From assembly GCA_041740355.1 (NCBI GenBank), contig JBGSMD010000026.1, positions 1-64,000 on the forward strand: DNA of 64,000 nt, read 5' to 3'. This stretch comes from Bdellovibrionota bacterium (lineage in GTDB: Bacteria > Bdellovibrionota_C > UBA2361 > CALJRW01). The notes below the pieces were generated by a model. The model had not been told where the DNA came from and searched no databases. It saw only the letters and a list, made by a program, of their open reading frames with translations. Below are positions 10,097 to 62,200 of the stretch, piece by piece. Position numbers and translations under genes: made by a program. How positions within the stretch are numbered: position 1 is the stretch's first letter; each line of letters begins with the position of its first letter.

Positions 10097-11419
10097 ATGA
10101 CTATCGGATTTGACTCCTTGATACCAACCAGCCCATCGTCCTCTCCTGATAATTTTCTTTCAATAAATAGTTTCTCAAAGAAAACAGTAACAGTAGCTGA
10201 ATTTGCCAAAATATTTGGTTTTGGAAGTGCTTCTGAAGCCAAGACAGCATTGGCCATGTTTAAACATATCCCAGAGTATCCCCTACTTGCCGGCTCTTCA
10301 TTCCAAGTTGATATCGATCGCTGTGTAAGTGGCAATCATGTTCTCGATTTTTTAGTTGTGGATTCTAAAGGCAAAGCTTTATCTGTTGAATTTCATCCAA
10401 TCTGCTTGGATCGTGAAATGAAGTACAATGATCTTTATCGAAGATTTATGGATCTTACAGAAAAGTACAAGGATAAACATGTTGGAAGAAATGGAAGATT
10501 AATACAATCAGAAGATCATCGAATACCTGATATCTCAAGCAAAATGAAAGCGCTCCAGAAGGATATCTGTGAAAGATACTACATTCAAAAAAGAGCTAAT
10601 TATGTCCAAAACTCTAATTCTAGCTTAGTGCGAGAATCAACTTTTGTTTTAATAAAAGGAGAGCATGAACTATTAAAATTTATTAATCTATGGCAACCAA
10701 AATTAACCAAAAGTGAATTTGAAAATAAATCTTGGTCACAAAAATCGGTCGACCTTGCTGAATTTTTTAGAACAAATGCAAGAAAGCATGAATTTCATGC
10801 CAACTATCAACTTGCTTTTGATTACCAAGCTGTTACCAAAGATAAAACTAGAGTTATTAATATCTTTGAAGAAAGAGTGCTTAAGACTATAAATCAAACA
10901 CTAATCGGACTAAATGCAGAATTTGGCAACAGATATACAGGTAGAGTCGCAATTGATCACAGGTCGCCCGAAAGCTATATAAACTTCGCCCCTTTTCATA
11001 GCTTAGTAGTTAAACCACATGAGGTAAACCTAGCGAGAGATATTGGTCAAAAGTTAATAGTAGAAGATCCCTTCTTAAAACTTGGATTAGCTAGAAAGGC
11101 TCGTGATATATATACAGGTCAACAAATTTATGCTCGCTTTGAAAGCATACTCGGAGTCCTAGACAAAGATGATGCTGCTAAGTTTTTAGATATTCAGGTA
11201 GAGTTAGCTAAGTTTACCAACTATAAACGACTTCGCTGTTCTTTTAGTCACTCGCCTTTTGGTAACTTACCCACAAATAATTTTGTGCATGTAGCGAATG
11301 CTGAGGACCTTTGGAATCGAGTGATTTCCCCCTTAGCTGGCCCAAATATAAATCGTAACTACTTTAATCAGATATGGGATTACAATCAAGAATCTCGAGA
11401 AGCTGTAGCAAGCGTCTAG
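10097..11419 (+). CDS. Hypothetical protein, possible N-terminal PD-(D/E)xK-like domain
   Basis: 440-aa ORF; SEAK...FQVD...LDFLV...LSVEFHP pattern. Confidence 0.7.
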   Translation: MTIGFDSLIPTSPSSSPDNFLSINSFSKKTVTVAEFAKIFGFGSASEAKTALAMFKHIPEYPLLAGSSFQVDIDRCVSGNHVLDFLVVDSKGKALSVEFHPICLDREMKYNDLYRRFMDLTEKYKDKHVGRNGRLIQSEDHRIPDISSKMKALQKDICERYYIQKRANYVQNSNSSLVRESTFVLIKGEHELLKFINLWQPKLTKSEFENKSWSQKSVDLAEFFRTNARKHEFHANYQLAFDYQAVTKDKTRVINIFEERVLKTINQTLIGLNAEFGNRYTGRVAIDHRSPESYINFAPFHSLVVKPHEVNLARDIGQKLIVEDPFLKLGLARKARDIYTGQQIYARFESILGVLDKDDAAKFLDIQVELAKFTNYKRLRCSFSHSPFGNLPTNNFVHVANAEDLWNRVISPLAGPNINRNYFNQIWDYNQESREAVASV

Positions 11420-11654
11420 ATTAAGATATGAGTGAGTTGAGTTTAAGTAACTTAAATCAACCGACTGTGCTCTTTCAGCTAATGATATCACTTACTTAGT
11501 ATTACCACTGACCTAGCAAAAGTCTTTCGAACTTAGCAAATATAGATCTTTTTAAATGATAAATCCACCTCCGCACCGAAGGTTGCTCAAGGTCCACGAT
11601 TGTTGTGTTGTAGTAATATTCCACGCACTTCACCTAGTGTAGCAATGTTCCACG

Positions 11655-11718
11655 CCTGTCACGTCGTAGCAATGTTCCACGTAGAACATTCATCAAGATG
11701 TATTTTTGCGTAGACGGA
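11655..11718 (-). repeat. REP-like element with expanded loop, interrupting a parS site
   Basis: Arms CCTGTCACGTCGTAGC and GCGTAGACGGA match the REP family at 20436/62122. The flanks rejoin to TGTTCCACG^TAGAACA. Confidence 0.75.
11673..11688. promoter_or_regulatory. parS: parS site
   Basis: TGTTCCACGTAGAACA, close to consensus TGTTTCACGTGAAACA, upstream of parA. Confidence 0.85.
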
Positions 11719-11905
11719 TAGAACATTTATCAATATATATTTATATATGCTTTGCGGAGGTTAATAGAAAATTTACCTAAACGTATTGTTCCGCATACTG
11801 ATAGAATGATTAGTTATGACAGCGACACACTTAGATAATAATAAATATCAATTAAAACATGTTTTCGTTTGATTAATTAGATCAGATAGTTTAAAAATAT
11901 TCTCA

Positions 11906-12697
11906 ATGACAGAAATTATCGCAATTGCCAATCAAAAAGGTGGTGTCGGCAAAACCACTAGCACAGTAAATCTTGGAGCTGACCTTGCAATGCTTGGATT
12001 TCAAGTTTTAGTTATCGACTTTGACCCTCAAGGAAGTGCGACAAGTGGTCTAGGCGTGGATCTTCAAGAAGATGTGAAGGATCTTTTTGATATGTTTTTT
12101 GGGGAAGCAAACTTAACCTCAATCATTCTGAAAACAAAAATTCCCAATCTTTCCATTGCTCCAGCGTCCTCCGACTTAGTATCAATTGAGATTGAATTAG
12201 GAAAAACTCCTGGTAGAGAGTTAATCTTAAAGACAGAACTAGATAGTATTAAGAGTCGTTATGATTACATTTTAATCGATTGTCCACCATCTTCAGGTCT
12301 TCTAACTCTAAACGCACTAGGGGCAGCCAATAAGGTTTTAATTCCATTACAATCAGAATATTATGCCTTAGAAGGCTTAAGTGCCTTAATTAAAACAATT
12401 AATTTCGTTCAGGGAACTTACAATACCAAACTTGAAATCCTTGGTGTATTTCTAACTATGTACGATGCCAGAACTAATTTATCTGCTCAAGTTTGGGAAG
12501 AAGCGAAGAACCATTTTGGCGATAAAGTTTTTCTGACAAGAATCCCAAGAAATATTAAGTTGTCTGAAGCTCCAAGCCATGGAGAGCCAATAGCAATTTA
12601 TGCTCCGGAATCAAATGGAGCAGAAGCTTATAGAAGTTTAGCAAAAGAAGTAGCAGCAAGATGCCAAGGAACAATGGCTCAGGCTTCGAATTTATAG
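11906..12697 (+). CDS. parA: ParA/Soj partition ATPase
   Basis: NQKGGVGKTT deviant Walker A, DCPPS, EAPSHG. Confidence 0.97.
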   Translation: MTEIIAIANQKGGVGKTTSTVNLGADLAMLGFQVLVIDFDPQGSATSGLGVDLQEDVKDLFDMFFGEANLTSIILKTKIPNLSIAPASSDLVSIEIELGKTPGRELILKTELDSIKSRYDYILIDCPPSSGLLTLNALGAANKVLIPLQSEYYALEGLSALIKTINFVQGTYNTKLEILGVFLTMYDARTNLSAQVWEEAKNHFGDKVFLTRIPRNIKLSEAPSHGEPIAIYAPESNGAEAYRSLAKEVAARCQGTMAQASNL

Positions 12698-12707
12698 GAA
12701 TGTTCTA

Positions 12708-12770
12708 TCCGCCTACGCGCCCAAGCATCGAATAAATGTTCCACGTAGAACATAGCTTCGGCGTGACAAG
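12708..12770 (+). repeat. REP-like element with expanded loop, interrupting a parS site
   Basis: Arms TCCGCCTACGC and GCTTCGGCGTGACAAG. The flanks rejoin to TGTTCTA^CGTGGAACA. Confidence 0.75.
12737..12752. promoter_or_regulatory. parS: parS site
   Basis: TGTTCCACGTAGAACA between parA and parB, identical to the 11673 site. Confidence 0.85.
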
Positions 12771-12803
12771 CGTGGAACATAAAGAAATTTTAAAGAGTAA
12801 AAT

Positions 12804-13757
12804 ATGACTGAAACAAAGAAATTTAGAAAACCATTGGGCAGGGGACTTAGCGCACTCATCTCATCGCCAAGCGTGCAAACATCTCCTGAAAAACAGTCTG
12901 AAACAGTATCAAGATCAGAGGTAATCGGCACAATTTCACCAGTTCAAATTGATAGCAGAAATTCAATTCTCTATATTAAAATTGAGCAATTATCTCGCAA
13001 TGAAGCTCAACCAAGAACGGAGTTTAAACTTCCAGAGTTACAAGAACTAGCCGAATCCATTAAGCAACATGGCGTTATTCAACCAATTATAGTTCGCAAG
13101 GTAGACAAAAATAGCGAGCAATATCAAATAGTTGCAGGTGAACGTCGGTGGAGAGCAGCAAGTCTTGCGGGCTTAAAACAAGTCCCTGTAATCTTAAAAG
13201 ATCTTCCCGATAAAGACACTTTAGAAATTGCCTTAATTGAGAACATTCAACGTCAGAACCTAAATGCCGCGGAAGAAGCTCGGGCCTATCAAGCATTAAT
13301 GGACGAGTTTTCCATGAACCAACAAGAAGTTGCTGACAAAGTAGGGAAGAGTCGCAGTGCTATAGCTAATTTTGTCCGGATTCTAAACCTAGTTCCTGAA
13401 GCTTTAACAATGTTGGAAAAGGGCGAAATTAGTTTAGGTCATGCTAAGGCCTTACTAACAATTAAAGAACCCTCTGCTCAACTTAATCTTGCCAAAAAAA
13501 TCATTGCCGAAAGTTTATCAGTAAGAGCATTAGAAGAAATTGTTGAACGTAGCGTGCAAATTGAAAGTCGAGGGAAAACCAAAAATCGCATTGCTCCTGC
13601 TGTGGGGTATTCTGATTTAGAAAACAGATTAAAGAATATGCTTGGCACAAAGGTTAAAATTAAAACTAACAAAAAGGGCACTGGCTCTATACAAATCGAA
13701 TACTACTCGGAAGCAGAGTTAGGAAGAATTATCGATCTTGTTGAAAATAAAAATTGA
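12804..13757 (+). CDS. parB: ParB/Spo0J partition protein
   Basis: LGRGLSALI, QPR, VAGERRWRA, ENIQRQNL, HTH. Confidence 0.97.
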   Translation: MTETKKFRKPLGRGLSALISSPSVQTSPEKQSETVSRSEVIGTISPVQIDSRNSILYIKIEQLSRNEAQPRTEFKLPELQELAESIKQHGVIQPIIVRKVDKNSEQYQIVAGERRWRAASLAGLKQVPVILKDLPDKDTLEIALIENIQRQNLNAAEEARAYQALMDEFSMNQQEVADKVGKSRSAIANFVRILNLVPEALTMLEKGEISLGHAKALLTIKEPSAQLNLAKKIIAESLSVRALEEIVERSVQIESRGKTKNRIAPAVGYSDLENRLKNMLGTKVKIKTNKKGTGSIQIEYYSEAELGRIIDLVENKN

Positions 13758-20435: not shown

Positions 20436-20466
20436 CTTGCCTCGTCGAAGCTTTAGCGAAGGCGGG
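20436..20466 (-). repeat. REP-like element
   Basis: Reverse complement CCCGCCTTCGCTAAAGCTTCGACGAGGCAAG matches 62122-62153. Confidence 0.75.
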
Positions 20467-27159: not shown

Positions 27160-28125
27160 CTATAACCGATGCTCAATCAAGTGATGAAGTAGCGGTAGCC
27201 TTGGAGGAAACAACCCTGCTGGATATTTCTCTGAAAAGTCACCCCCTAATATCTTTTGATAGATCTCATTTGCCTCTTCACAAATTATCTTGGCATAGTT
27301 AATAAATTGCCTTCTTAATGTCCTATTGCCTGAAATACACCACATCTTCCTACCAGTGCGCTTAGATCTGTACTTTAAATCAATCCCTTGATTCTCAAGC
27401 TTCGATCTTCCCATAAATGATTTCTTTTCTTCCCAGATAGCTAACTGAGTTTCGATAATCATTTTGTGAATTGATTTATTAATCTCATTTACTTCTTTAA
27501 GATCTTTAATATTAAAAGCTTTCATCCAACCATTGGGGCTCAATTCAAGGTTGCCTCTGGCAGGATTATCCTTAGTTAGTAGATTCTTGATCTTTTGAAA
27601 GAACTGAAAGCCTTTGTCTTGGCGTAATTCGAATAGCGAATCTCTAGTAATGTAATTACATTTAATATTTGGAGTATTAGCTTGGTAATTATCCCAAGAA
27701 GATAATCCTGGATACTTATTAATAGACTCTATTAGTCCATCCTTTACTGGATTAGTGTACAGGTAATTAATCTTACTAATTACATCTTCTCTAGTTAATA
27801 AGGCAGGAGAATCATACCTCTCGCACCAGACGGTTCTTTTGGTTCTACCAAGGATTCTGTTTAAGTAATGTGCTGATTCTGTTTTAAAGCGTTCCATGAA
27901 CTTGGGAAGATCTTCAGGATTATCAATCCTGACTATCATGTGAATATGAGTTCCGTTTACGATAAAATGATTGATTTCGAGTGGATGGTGCTTAAAGGCA
28001 CGGATTAATGCTGCCTTTAGTAAGAACTTAACTAAGGGATTAGCTGGAAGCATAATTCCTTCTTCCACGCTTAGCGTTACGAAGTAGACTTTGTTGTTAA
28101 GAATTAATTTACGAAGACGGGGCAT
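27160..28125 (-). mobile_element. HUH Y1 transposase, REP-associated (RAYT-like)
   Basis: MPR...VYFVT, THIHMIV (HUH), VWCERY, YLYTNPVKDGL, YPGLSSW. Confidence 0.88.
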
Positions 28126-28409
28126 AAAACTAGTCAATATTTTTACAATATTGAGCTATCGAAGATACAGGACTGAAGTTGTTCTAAAATTCTTATAAAG
28201 TTGCGTGGCACAAGATGGAAGATGGGAACTACAGGGAGGGAGAGAGACAACAACAAGCCTGCTATTATCAAAATTGTTTGATAAACAAATTGTTAAAGCA
28301 TTATTTTACTATTCATCGTTCAACATACTCCTTGGAATCTCAAATCTCATAGGTTATATTATTTGCCCTAAACAAACCGCATCGACTAAGTGTAAGTGAG
28401 TAAAATAAT

Positions 28410-58226: not shown

Positions 58227-60182
58227 ATGGTAAGGCCTATGCCAATACTTTTATTGTACCTGCTTGTAACAGTTATCATATTTTTTACTCATCTTGCCGG
58301 TTATAACACTTTTTTCGCATCTGGCGATGCCGCAGTTCAATCCTATGCTTGGTTTGCAAAAATTGAACGAGCCTTACTAAATTTCGATTTTCCACTTTGG
58401 GATTTCGGAACCGATTCTGGCACTTCTTTTATTGGAGAGCTACAATCAGGGGCTTTCTACCCTCCTGTTTGGGTAATTTCGTTTTTACCTCCTTACGGAA
58501 ACTATACTAAGTTTGAATTGTTTATCGCGCTACATTTTACTTGGGGTGCCTTTGGAGCTTACACTTTATTTCGCGAATTTGGACTATCAAGAATTTCGGC
58601 ATTCTTTGGTGGGCTACTGTTTGGATTTGTTGGGCCTGCTGCTGCTCGTGCTTTTGGACAACCCAATCTTCATGCTGGTGTAGTTCAAATTCCATGGATG
58701 ATTTATTTTGCTCTTCGTGGCGCAAAGTCCACTTCTACAAAAGTAATTCTAAGTAATTTTGCCTGTTGTGCTGGAATGGGAGCACTTGCAATCCTTGCAG
58801 GTCACATGCATGCCTTTATTCATGGACTACTAGCCTCGGCCTTAATTATTCCTTTTGCAAGTAGGCACTCTTGGAAAAAACTAATCTACTTTAGTCCTGT
58901 TTTTCCATTTGCTTTAGGCCTCGCTGCAGTTCAGTTTTTACCTACGTACGAGTATTTTAAATTAGCCTACAAATGGTTTGGAGCTGGATTCACAAAATAC
59001 CCTCACCTTGTGCCTTTTGCCGAGTTTGAACGCTTTGCACTTAAATCAACCTGCTCGCTTAGGCTAGGCATTTCAGATTGCCAAAGCCCTGAAGGAGCCA
59101 GCTTATTCTTTACATATTCTGGTTATGCTCTAGCAATATTAGGTATCGTTTACATATCTCGATATCGCAAAGACCTAACTAACTATTATTTCTTAGCACT
59201 ATTGGTTGTAGCTTTAGTCATAGCAACAGGTGGTAATAATTTTTGGGGTCAACTAATTTACAACACTCCAATTCTTAATCTTGTCAGGATTCCATCAAGG
59301 GCAATGCACCTCTATAGCTTAGCGACCGCTGGGCTTGTAGCTCTAGGAATACAATTATTACTTAATAATTATCAGTCCCGGCTACTGAAATCGAGCTTAA
59401 GACTTGTTGCATTAGTAATAATAGTATCTTTAACTTTTGAAATGCATACATACACAAAGAGGTATCATCGATCTGCCTCGAATCTGAATGCTGGTCCAGT
59501 ATATTACAAACTAAATCCAATTTCCGAGTTCTTAATTGATCAACAGATAGCAGATCAAGGACTATATCGTTTTGCGAATTTACCAAACTCAGTGATTCCA
59601 GCTAACATAGGAAATGTTTATGATATAAAAAATATTACCTCTCATAAATCAAGTAAATACGGCAACTATTATGATTATTTGTCTAAGGATTGGAACTATC
59701 AATCGAAACGATTTAATGAGCTTGGCTTAAAATATATTGTTTCAAATAAGGAAATACCAAACCTAAGAAAGGTTAAAGAATATCAGGGTATTATGATTTA
59801 TGAGAAGCCAGAACCTTTACCAATCTTTTATTATAAAAAAAATAAGAAGTTCTTTCCAATTCCTTTAGATTCAAAAATAACTTGGAATGAAAATAGTGTT
59901 ACAGTTACCTTTCCACATGCCTTTAAAGCTCCACTCGGTGGTCGGTTTATTTTTGCTCAAGCAAACTATCCAGGCTGGCAAGTCTTAGTAAATCAAAAAC
60001 CTAGAAACATTCTTAAAAATCCTTCACTATTAACGATTAATAATAAATCAAAAATTAACCAAATAACTTATCGCTATCAACCGAAGAGTGTTGTTTATGG
60101 TTTCCTGATAACGTTTATGTGTTTAATAATTTTTTTATTTTTAATAAGAAACAAAAAAAACGAAACTACAAATGACTATTGA
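58227..60182 (+). CDS. YfhO-like GT-C membrane glycosyltransferase
   Basis: PLWD...G..F......FYPP, LAAVQFLPT, RIPSR, NYPGWQVLVN, YRYQP. Confidence 0.8.
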   Translation: MVRPMPILLLYLLVTVIIFFTHLAGYNTFFASGDAAVQSYAWFAKIERALLNFDFPLWDFGTDSGTSFIGELQSGAFYPPVWVISFLPPYGNYTKFELFIALHFTWGAFGAYTLFREFGLSRISAFFGGLLFGFVGPAAARAFGQPNLHAGVVQIPWMIYFALRGAKSTSTKVILSNFACCAGMGALAILAGHMHAFIHGLLASALIIPFASRHSWKKLIYFSPVFPFALGLAAVQFLPTYEYFKLAYKWFGAGFTKYPHLVPFAEFERFALKSTCSLRLGISDCQSPEGASLFFTYSGYALAILGIVYISRYRKDLTNYYFLALLVVALVIATGGNNFWGQLIYNTPILNLVRIPSRAMHLYSLATAGLVALGIQLLLNNYQSRLLKSSLRLVALVIIVSLTFEMHTYTKRYHRSASNLNAGPVYYKLNPISEFLIDQQIADQGLYRFANLPNSVIPANIGNVYDIKNITSHKSSKYGNYYDYLSKDWNYQSKRFNELGLKYIVSNKEIPNLRKVKEYQGIMIYEKPEPLPIFYYKKNKKFFPIPLDSKITWNENSVTVTFPHAFKAPLGGRFIFAQANYPGWQVLVNQKPRNILKNPSLLTINNKSKINQITYRYQPKSVVYGFLITFMCLIIFLFLIRNKKNETTNDY

Positions 60183-61830: not shown

Positions 61831-62121
61831 GAGAATTGGCAATTGAACTTCCCCTAGTCAGAATTTTTAAAGGGATCTATTAGGAAAAACTGTAAATTAC
61901 TGTAATAAAATCTGCTTACCTAGTACTTTAAGCACAAAGTGCTTGATGTAACCCAATCGGGTTAAATACGGGGGAAAACAAATATAGTGAGTCCAAAAAA
62001 TAAATTACTTTAAAAAACTAACGATTTTGCTTGGACTCACTATTTATGTTGTTTTTAGCTATGCAAACTTGGATAAAACCAAGATTTGCATTAGCCGTAA
62101 TGACTCTGTTCAATTTACTAA

Positions 62122-62153
62122 CCAGCCTTCGCTGAAGCTTCGGCTAGGCAGGC
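62122..62153 (+). repeat. REP-like element nested in a larger hairpin
   Basis: CCAGCCTTCGCTGAAGCTTCGGCTAGGCAGGC flanked by AATTTACT/AGTAAATT and GTAATGAC/GTCATTAC. Confidence 0.75.
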
Positions 62154-62200
62154 AGTAAATTATTTCTTGTCATTACTATATACTAAAACCTAATATGTAT

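Follow-up and report, generated by a model that had tools for sequence, protein, structure and literature searches.

In an uncultured hot-spring bacterium of the Bdellovibrionota, both parS sites that neighbour parA have been entered by short, non-coding REP-type hairpin elements, which split an older parS copy while holding an intact parS in their own loops. This observation of REP-split parS with intact parS in the loops is confirmed for the two loci, and upstream of parA the insertion appears to have recurred, one element lying within the remains of others.

The window, that is, the whole stretch of DNA that was analysed, comprises 64,000 nt (positions 1–64,000 of the forward strand of contig JBGSMD010000026.1, Bdellovibrionota bacterium GCA_041740355.1) and belongs to a metagenome assembly of 3.27 Mb and 36% GC (genome G000). 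Comparison was made with a sister species (G001), a genome of the sister genus (G002) and the parS loci of ten further genomes of the order. A second sample of the study yielded contigs, built independently, that show 0 differences over both parS loci (X2, records 7 and 12), so that the structure is not an assembly artefact. No alternative, polymorphic or intermediate alleles were found in the contigs of three public runs from one study, all of which equal the window; the X3 contigs end at the left element, and the X3 stretches without cover carry no evidential weight.

parS-bearing elements on either side of parA

The genes parA and parB are both complete, and parA has one parS-bearing element on either side.

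11906–12697, plus strand: parA, soj-type ATPase (Pfam AAA_31, E 9.5e-63; CbiA; ParA)
12804–13757, plus strand: parB (Pfam ParB_N 6e-36, HTH_ParB 9e-35, ParB_C 1e-10)
11655–11718, minus strand: left REP-type element, innermost and predicted youngest of its locus (two-arm pattern match; 64 nt, loop of 37 nt)
11655–11670, minus strand: left element, 3' arm and tail
11671–11707, minus strand: left element, loop
11708–11718, minus strand: left element, 5' arm and leading T
11673–11688, no strand: intact predicted parS in the left loop, 1 mismatch to the order-wide palindrome
12701–12707, no strand: outer left half of the split parA-parB parS
12708–12770, plus strand: right REP-type element (two-arm pattern match; 63 nt, loop of 36 nt)
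12708–12718, plus strand: right element, T and 5' arm
12719–12754, plus strand: right element, loop
12755–12770, plus strand: right element, 3' arm and tail
12737–12752, no strand: intact predicted parS in the right loop, the second of two in the genome
12771–12779, no strand: outer right half of the split parA-parB parS
12677–12691, plus strand: stretch at the 3' end of parA that resembles the right loop (12/15 identical to 12719–12733)

The palindrome taken as reference is perfect in the sister genus, present at nine of the ten other loci of the order and near-perfect at the tenth. Only two sites within one mismatch of the parS consensus occur in the G000 genome, both inside REP-type loops; each is a 16-bp site one base off the palindrome of the lineage and lies beside parAB, and these loop sites are the predicted chromosomal parS, i.e., the putative ParB-binding centromere sites of the organism.

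Each element is built of a T and a 10-nt GC-rich 5' arm, a loop of 36 or 37 nt, and a 3' arm with a short tail. In both window elements parS is split after base 7 in the orientation of the element, and excision of either one in silico restores a 16-bp parS-like palindrome; the original prediction, which had described two REP-like elements inserted at the same base of two parS sites and removable so as to rejoin a complete site, thus holds in its coordinates and in its anatomy. A perfect parS in single-stranded form would show a 4-nt tip, the split falling after the first base of that tip. The parS of the right loop is flipped relative to its flank, as had been described, and is the reverse-complement variant of its outer split site, from which it differs by two bases, at the paired positions 6 and 11.

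The window carries, ahead of the parS-parA region, a 440-aa open reading frame without a Pfam match (10097–11419). In the sister species (locus L002) the end of the upstream gene is different and resembles, by eye, a peptide chain release factor, and synteny between the two genomes ends exactly at the nested upstream site.

Nested layers at the upstream site

The left element is enclosed by decayed arms, loops and half-sites, which extend on both sides up to relics of a native parS.

11593–11598, no strand: relic of the native left half of the upstream parS, preceding the layer-3 unit in a register shared with the other half-sites
11599–11625, minus strand: layer-3 (predicted oldest) left unit, decayed 3' arm and tail followed by half parS
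11626–11654, minus strand: layer-2 left unit, decayed 3' arm and tail, then the parS half separated by the inner element
11719–11764, minus strand: layer-2 unit on the right, made up of a half parS, an old loop and a 5' arm that has decayed
11765–11801, minus strand: layer-3 unit on the right, likewise a half parS, an old loop and a 5' arm that has decayed
11802–11808, no strand: remnant of the right half of the native upstream parS, opening the next unit in register

Three left units (11599–11625, 11626–11654 and 11655–11681), each an arm with a half parS, are followed by three right units (11682–11718, 11719–11764 and 11765–11801), each a half parS with a loop and an arm, and judged from these alignments the upstream locus is a stack of three layers with the oldest outermost. 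The layer-3 units are identical to their inner counterparts at 19/27 positions on the left (against 11655–11681) and at 26/37 on the right (against 11682–11718), values that were reached by 0/200,000 random windows in each comparison; the arm parts taken alone give 9/16 on the left and 7/11 on the right (p 0.003 for both). In layer 2, the last 16 nt of the left unit are identical to the inner unit and its arm has diverged, with a 2-nt indel in an alignment made by eye, while the first 24 nt of the right unit match 11682–11705 at 21/24 and its old loop matches the inner loop with p 0.001. The 37 nt to the right of layer 3 show no relation to the loops (10/37, p 0.57). From identities compared by eye, arms and loops have decayed side by side, the more so the farther out they lie.

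Loops and their flanks

When the left site is rejoined (11639–11654 plus 11719–11742), it matches 11666–11705 at 37/40, exactly the figure given in the original prediction, and the similarity survives masking of the 16-bp parS, as the latter had demanded, with 21/24 identical positions, a level that 0/300,000 random genome windows attain. This flank is the loop of an older layer and not native DNA, so that the 37/40 match does not prove copying of the target, nor does it discriminate between explanations, because target copying and re-insertion of an element into its own loop both predict it.

On the right side, the part of the loop outside parS is 12/15 identical to the 3' end of parA, with a displacement of 6 nt; the loop-flank p is 0.008 with a window of 40 nt and 0.003 with one of 25 nt, and an equal score is obtained against the orthologous flank of the sister species. 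The flank in question is coding sequence common to both species and contains no old loop. A decayed older layer within the 3' end of parA is a by-eye impression and is not claimed; derivation of the generic 34-nt loop from this gene end was also considered and rejected (score 9, p 0.34). The proposal that the non-parS part of each loop matches its own flank stands in part: on the left the identity is high and the flank is an older loop, and on the right the match is modest.

The right loop shows no relation to any loop of the upstream locus (p at least 0.39), and between the two window elements the arms are identical at 23/27 positions and the loops at 5/18 (Fisher p 0.00015), in agreement with the earlier claim of independent events rather than one duplication. 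The simplest reading of the likeness between the right loop and the native parA 3' flank is that target sequence was captured locally at least once. Between the oldest upstream layer and the native flank there is no match (p 0.87). In the sister species, the upstream inner element has no match to its own well-preserved 5' flank (score 3, p ~1), and the comparison of the parA-parB element with its flank is not significant (p 0.08–0.13). No two of the four loops from these two species are related, yet they have a common geometry, with lengths of 35–37 nt and, in three of the four elements, a parS that stands 17–19 nt from the 5' arm and 2 nt from the 3' arm. When loops were compared between the species by orientation class, their similarity was not significant (p 0.07–0.12); as the loops of the sister species match neither their flanks nor the loops of G000 significantly, descent and capture are not separable in that species.

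The loop-flank test was extended to 31 long-loop copies of the REP family and to controls. Six of the 31 exceed all controls, five of them being tandem or nested arrays and the sixth the left parS element; the control fraction is 0.033 for the right parS element and 0.036 for two further tandem copies, and 22 of the 31, tandem and single copies alike, show no loop-flank identity (control fraction at least 0.1). A loop equal to the rejoined flanks is therefore not found in every long-loop copy, and the expectation that long loops generally match their rejoined flanks failed, such matches being confined, among the 31, to the two parS elements and to arrays, tandem or nested. For the target-copying mechanism originally put forward, the outcome is divided: the right loop-flank match (p 0.003) speaks for it, while the left match is confounded and the elements of the sister species and the remaining long-loop copies speak against it.

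Empty and occupied sites in relatives

The genomes of the two species and of the sister genus have exactly two parS each, which lie upstream of parA and in the interval between parA and parB. In the sister genus both are perfect and uninterrupted, and at the loci fetched from ten other genomes of the order parS is perfect or near-perfect and likewise uninterrupted; these are empty alleles, which the original prediction had proposed to look for in relatives. In the sister species, both parS lie within loops of the same REP family, in orientations opposite to those in the window, and the upstream element adjoins a further, one-sided older arm. The occurrence of elements at both sites in opposite orientation indicates that such events recur.

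A strict half-full-half pattern of parS was found in the G000 genome alone among 91 genomes of the order; a match in G072 consists of three intact tandem sites, and the sister species is missed by this strict pattern. In a ParA search of metagenome contigs the genus was absent among the 80 loci kept, the best of which has 58% identity. The pattern of the 5' junction, searched in the genome contigs, returned 120 stretches, all attributable to chance, and the three that passed a filter for half parS sites were rejected on inspection, having neither a REP element nor a split parS. As a separate observation, long tandem arrays of parS are located beside parAB at loci L009 (genome G009, with a spacing of ~50 nt), L005, L004, L008 and L011; tandem arrays in the order mix the perfect palindrome with a position-6 variant that is also present in G000.

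The REP family and its landing sites

The arms of both parS elements belong to a family with the properties of REPs, a short imperfect palindrome in very many copies: 129 two-arm pattern matches were counted in the G000 genome, 126 under a stricter pattern. A short member had been announced elsewhere in the window and is present:

20436–20465 (approximate), minus strand: ordinary short (tetraloop) member of the REP family (pattern match)

Loop lengths within the family cluster at 4–7 nt and at 33–37 nt. Ordinary long loops have a consensus of their own, with two ~17-nt direct repeats, and often occur as 60-nt tandem doublets; the parS loops have the usual length and a different content. The leading T precedes the 5' arm in 25 of the 31 long-loop copies, many of which end in a CAAG-type tail. 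Tandem doublets of long-loop members are located in G000 at contig C9 76498–76790, C16 499–620, C19 16095–16215 and C6 ~59660–59781, and in one doublet member the 3' arm is interrupted by a short REP. Two long-loop members with a 7–8-bp inverted repeat of their own in the loop, at C61 ~59144 (minus strand) of G000 and at C27 6539–6591 of the sister species, resemble the parS elements and have flanks without a matching half-site.

The sequences bordering 16 of 126 members can pair over 8 bp or more, starting immediately at the ends of the element, compared with ~1% of 3000 control positions; the 16 represent ~4 types of host palindrome, many being copies of one composite repeat, so that the independent landing events are few. 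Short members are also found within other members, placed behind the first base of the tetraloop (2/26 by a strict pattern, with further cases in the census of the genome and two in the sister species). From these positions the family appears to land preferentially in hairpin tips, and the split parS sites would fit the type of target that it apparently favours. Across the 31 long-loop copies the 5' flanks are not alike, and the identity of the two parS junctions is explained by the shared target; a palindrome being alike on both strands, both orientations of the element occur. Folding of the single strands returned the expected nested topology, which is not unusually stable (z −0.88, −2.11 and −0.85).

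A composite repeat of ~150 nt, located at ~62040–62160 of the window and in ~25 other places of the genome, contains two REP-like hairpins, each in the tip of a longer host palindrome, the inner hairpin occurring in either orientation. Short REPs with a second 3' arm and no second 5' arm are seen at C15 ~8720, C51 ~141143 and C54 ~27300 of G000, and are likely nested pairs that have lost one arm through slippage between direct repeats.

RAYT-like HUH genes

Five genes with a Y1 (HUH) transposase domain are encoded in the G000 genome, in open frames of 324–341 aa, and Y1_Tnp genes are also present in the sister species and the sister genus. One of the five lies in the window and had been named as the candidate enzyme.

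27160–28137, minus strand: RAYT-like HUH (Y1) transposase gene, candidate enzyme (profile matches)

Its product scores 30.6 bits with Pfam Y1_Tnp, above the cut-off of 23, and 72.7 bits with the NCBIfam profile NF047646 (REP_Tyr_transpos), below the curated cut-off of 80, this latter match having an E value of 2.8e-20 and covering profile positions 3–144 of 146. No REPs flank the gene, the nearest census matches in the window being at ~20465 and 62123. The candidacy of this gene is accordingly retained as far as its RAYT-like character goes, and weakened by the score below cut-off, by the presence of four other such genes and by the lack of an adjacent REP. The first codons of RAYT-like genes hold a stretch resembling the REP 5' arm (window 28105–28137, minus strand; C63 ~206584; C4 ~12999), i.e., the start of these genes and the REP repeats have sequence in common.

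Origin of the nested sites

The reading to which most weight is given, tentatively and with a probability judged a little short of even, is that parS-bearing REP variants nest in parS, that the loop was captured locally at least once, and that selection removes insertions which destroy parS. REP-type hairpins would presumably be moved on single-stranded DNA by RAYT-like HUH enzymes and would land in hairpin tips, and both ancestral parS flanking parA may thus have been entered after the first base of the exposed 4-nt tip. The copies that persisted would be variants with a complete parS in a loop of 36–37 nt, so that the centromere site was retained. The parS of such a loop would again be a hairpin-tip target, and re-entry by a like element could have built the three-layer 'Russian doll' upstream of parA. 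The content of the loop was probably taken from the local target at least once, as the likeness of the right loop to the parA 3' end suggests, and the later layers would most simply be re-insertions of a parS-bearing hairpin into its own or its sister site. The direct repeats produced by nesting may allow layers to be lost through slippage, and the one-sided forms (the upstream locus of the sister species, the short REPs) can be understood as such deletions. Even under re-insertion of the later layers, the first parS-bearing hairpin would still require a capture, which counts against this reading.

That a founding capture is needed whichever model holds also counts for a rather unlikely, still serious, alternative, according to which every insertion copies ~37 nt of its target (~26 nt 5' and ~11 nt 3' of the cut, in the orientation of the element) into the loop, the product being a half site, an arm, a full copy, an arm and a half site, and the upstream layers three successive captures. 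The constant geometry among unrelated loops would follow directly, as would the mutual unrelatedness of all four loops, the likeness of the right loop to its own native flank and the 37/40 match of the left loop. Against it, the upstream inner element of the sister species is not a copy of a 5' flank that is well preserved, its parA-parB element and the oldest layer of the window locus fail to match their flanks significantly, the 22 long-loop copies without loop-flank identity have loops with a family consensus, and no known enzymology yields such a product. An improbable account would dispense with repeated insertion and derive the locus from one founding event, after which the left array (units of 27–29 nt) and the right array (37–46 nt) grew through replication slippage, or through unequal exchange among direct repeats, within either arm of a long palindrome, with the differences of orientation between species arising from flipping of the palindrome. 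Both arrays are indeed head-to-tail direct repeats, and one-sided forms exist in the sister species and among the short REPs with an extra 3' arm; the count of three units on either side, with a matching outward decay judged by eye, argues for layers instead, the family members nested in other hairpins show that tip insertion happens, and the founding event and the second site are left unexplained.

It is highly improbable that repeat mis-assembly, or a chance likeness of AT-rich intergenic DNA, has produced the pattern. The genome is a metagenome assembly and the X3 contigs end at the left element, but the second-sample contigs are identical over both loci, the same architecture is found in the sister species, and the identity outside parS is beyond all 300,000 random windows. 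With regard to the chemistry, there is some, clearly minor, chance that a single-strand reaction linked to HUH/RAYT enzymes adds the arms at the tip together with a ~37-nt copy of the target, or else that self-complementarity of the loop parS or bridging by ParB guides the hairpin to other parS sites. Either would be new in principle, since a transposable hairpin would then bring along, or make a copy of, the target that it enters; if the target-copy reaction were true, an essential palindromic site such as parS would be regenerated inside a mobile element.

Relation to known systems and implications

The closest known system is that of REP/REPIN sequences and RAYTs, in which short GC-rich imperfect hairpins likewise occur in singles, doublets and clusters (here with more than 100 pattern matches), RAYT-type HUH Y1 genes are present, and a larger hairpin is made by the REPIN as it is here by the long-loop class (PMC2817692, PMC3333891, PMC3116915, PMC3479197). 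In the available text of a survey of REP families, loops of 2–20 bp and conserved terminal tags of the GTAG or CGTC type are described, and the terms 'nested', 'inserted into' and 'target site' do not occur (PMC3733652). The present elements differ in that the loop holds a host cis-acting site, parS, and the element lies inside an older copy of it, in that nesting is systematic, and in that the RAYT-like protein of ~325 aa is below the NCBIfam cut-off and has no adjacent REP. Among the titles and abstracts covered, no literature linking REP or RAYT with parS was found, nor any on parS sites and ParB with miniature inverted-repeat elements, and in the titles and abstracts of the REPIN/RAYT literature 'nested' refers to replicators within genomes.

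Insertion of IS1397 is known to take place in the REP loop. In IS1397 and ISPpu9 a mobile element similarly picks the apex of a chromosomal palindrome, these being protein-coding insertion sequences of other families that enter REPs (PMC1525189, PMC12288879). Here, by contrast, a non-coding REP-type hairpin enters palindromes, including parS, and the target is regenerated.

Elements that exploit Xer recombination at dif (e.g., the CTX phage) and tRNA islands integrate into an essential site and rebuild it, the islands restoring the 3' end of the tRNA gene. By analogy, in both situations the incoming DNA would supply a working copy, leaving a site that is functional, may be hit again and gives rise to arrays. 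The dif and tRNA elements depend on tyrosine recombinases and a shared core sequence and leave one partial duplicate, whereas here a complete copy resides in a hairpin loop with both old halves outside, the target is parS, and no tyrosine recombinase is implicated.

IS200/IS605 elements insert 3' of a fixed sequence of 4–5 nt. With their HUH Y1 enzyme, their ends formed by hairpins and their use of single-stranded DNA of the replication fork as a target, they are the likely frame for the present case. Their single-strand transposition is of the 'peel and paste' type (PMC6006769). The targets found here differ in having a hairpin tip in common, with 5' flanks that vary among copies.

What is new here is the tendency to land in hairpin tips, with parS putatively split in its exposed tip, the three-layer upstream locus, and a right loop resembling the native flank. 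REP and REPIN sequences are abundant, yet their choice of targets and their effects on them are poorly known, and the present case offers clear insertion junctions, empty sites in relatives and a nesting that may be read as a record of successive events. The parS hairpin and the REP hairpin together would make a defined substrate pair for RAYT-type enzymes, and the question is raised whether partition sites elsewhere have been shaped or multiplied by such elements. For this bacterium, the predicted centromere sites, the only ones of the chromosome, are now inside mobile hairpins and have not been lost, which suggests that a mobile element can enter an important DNA site without destroying it.
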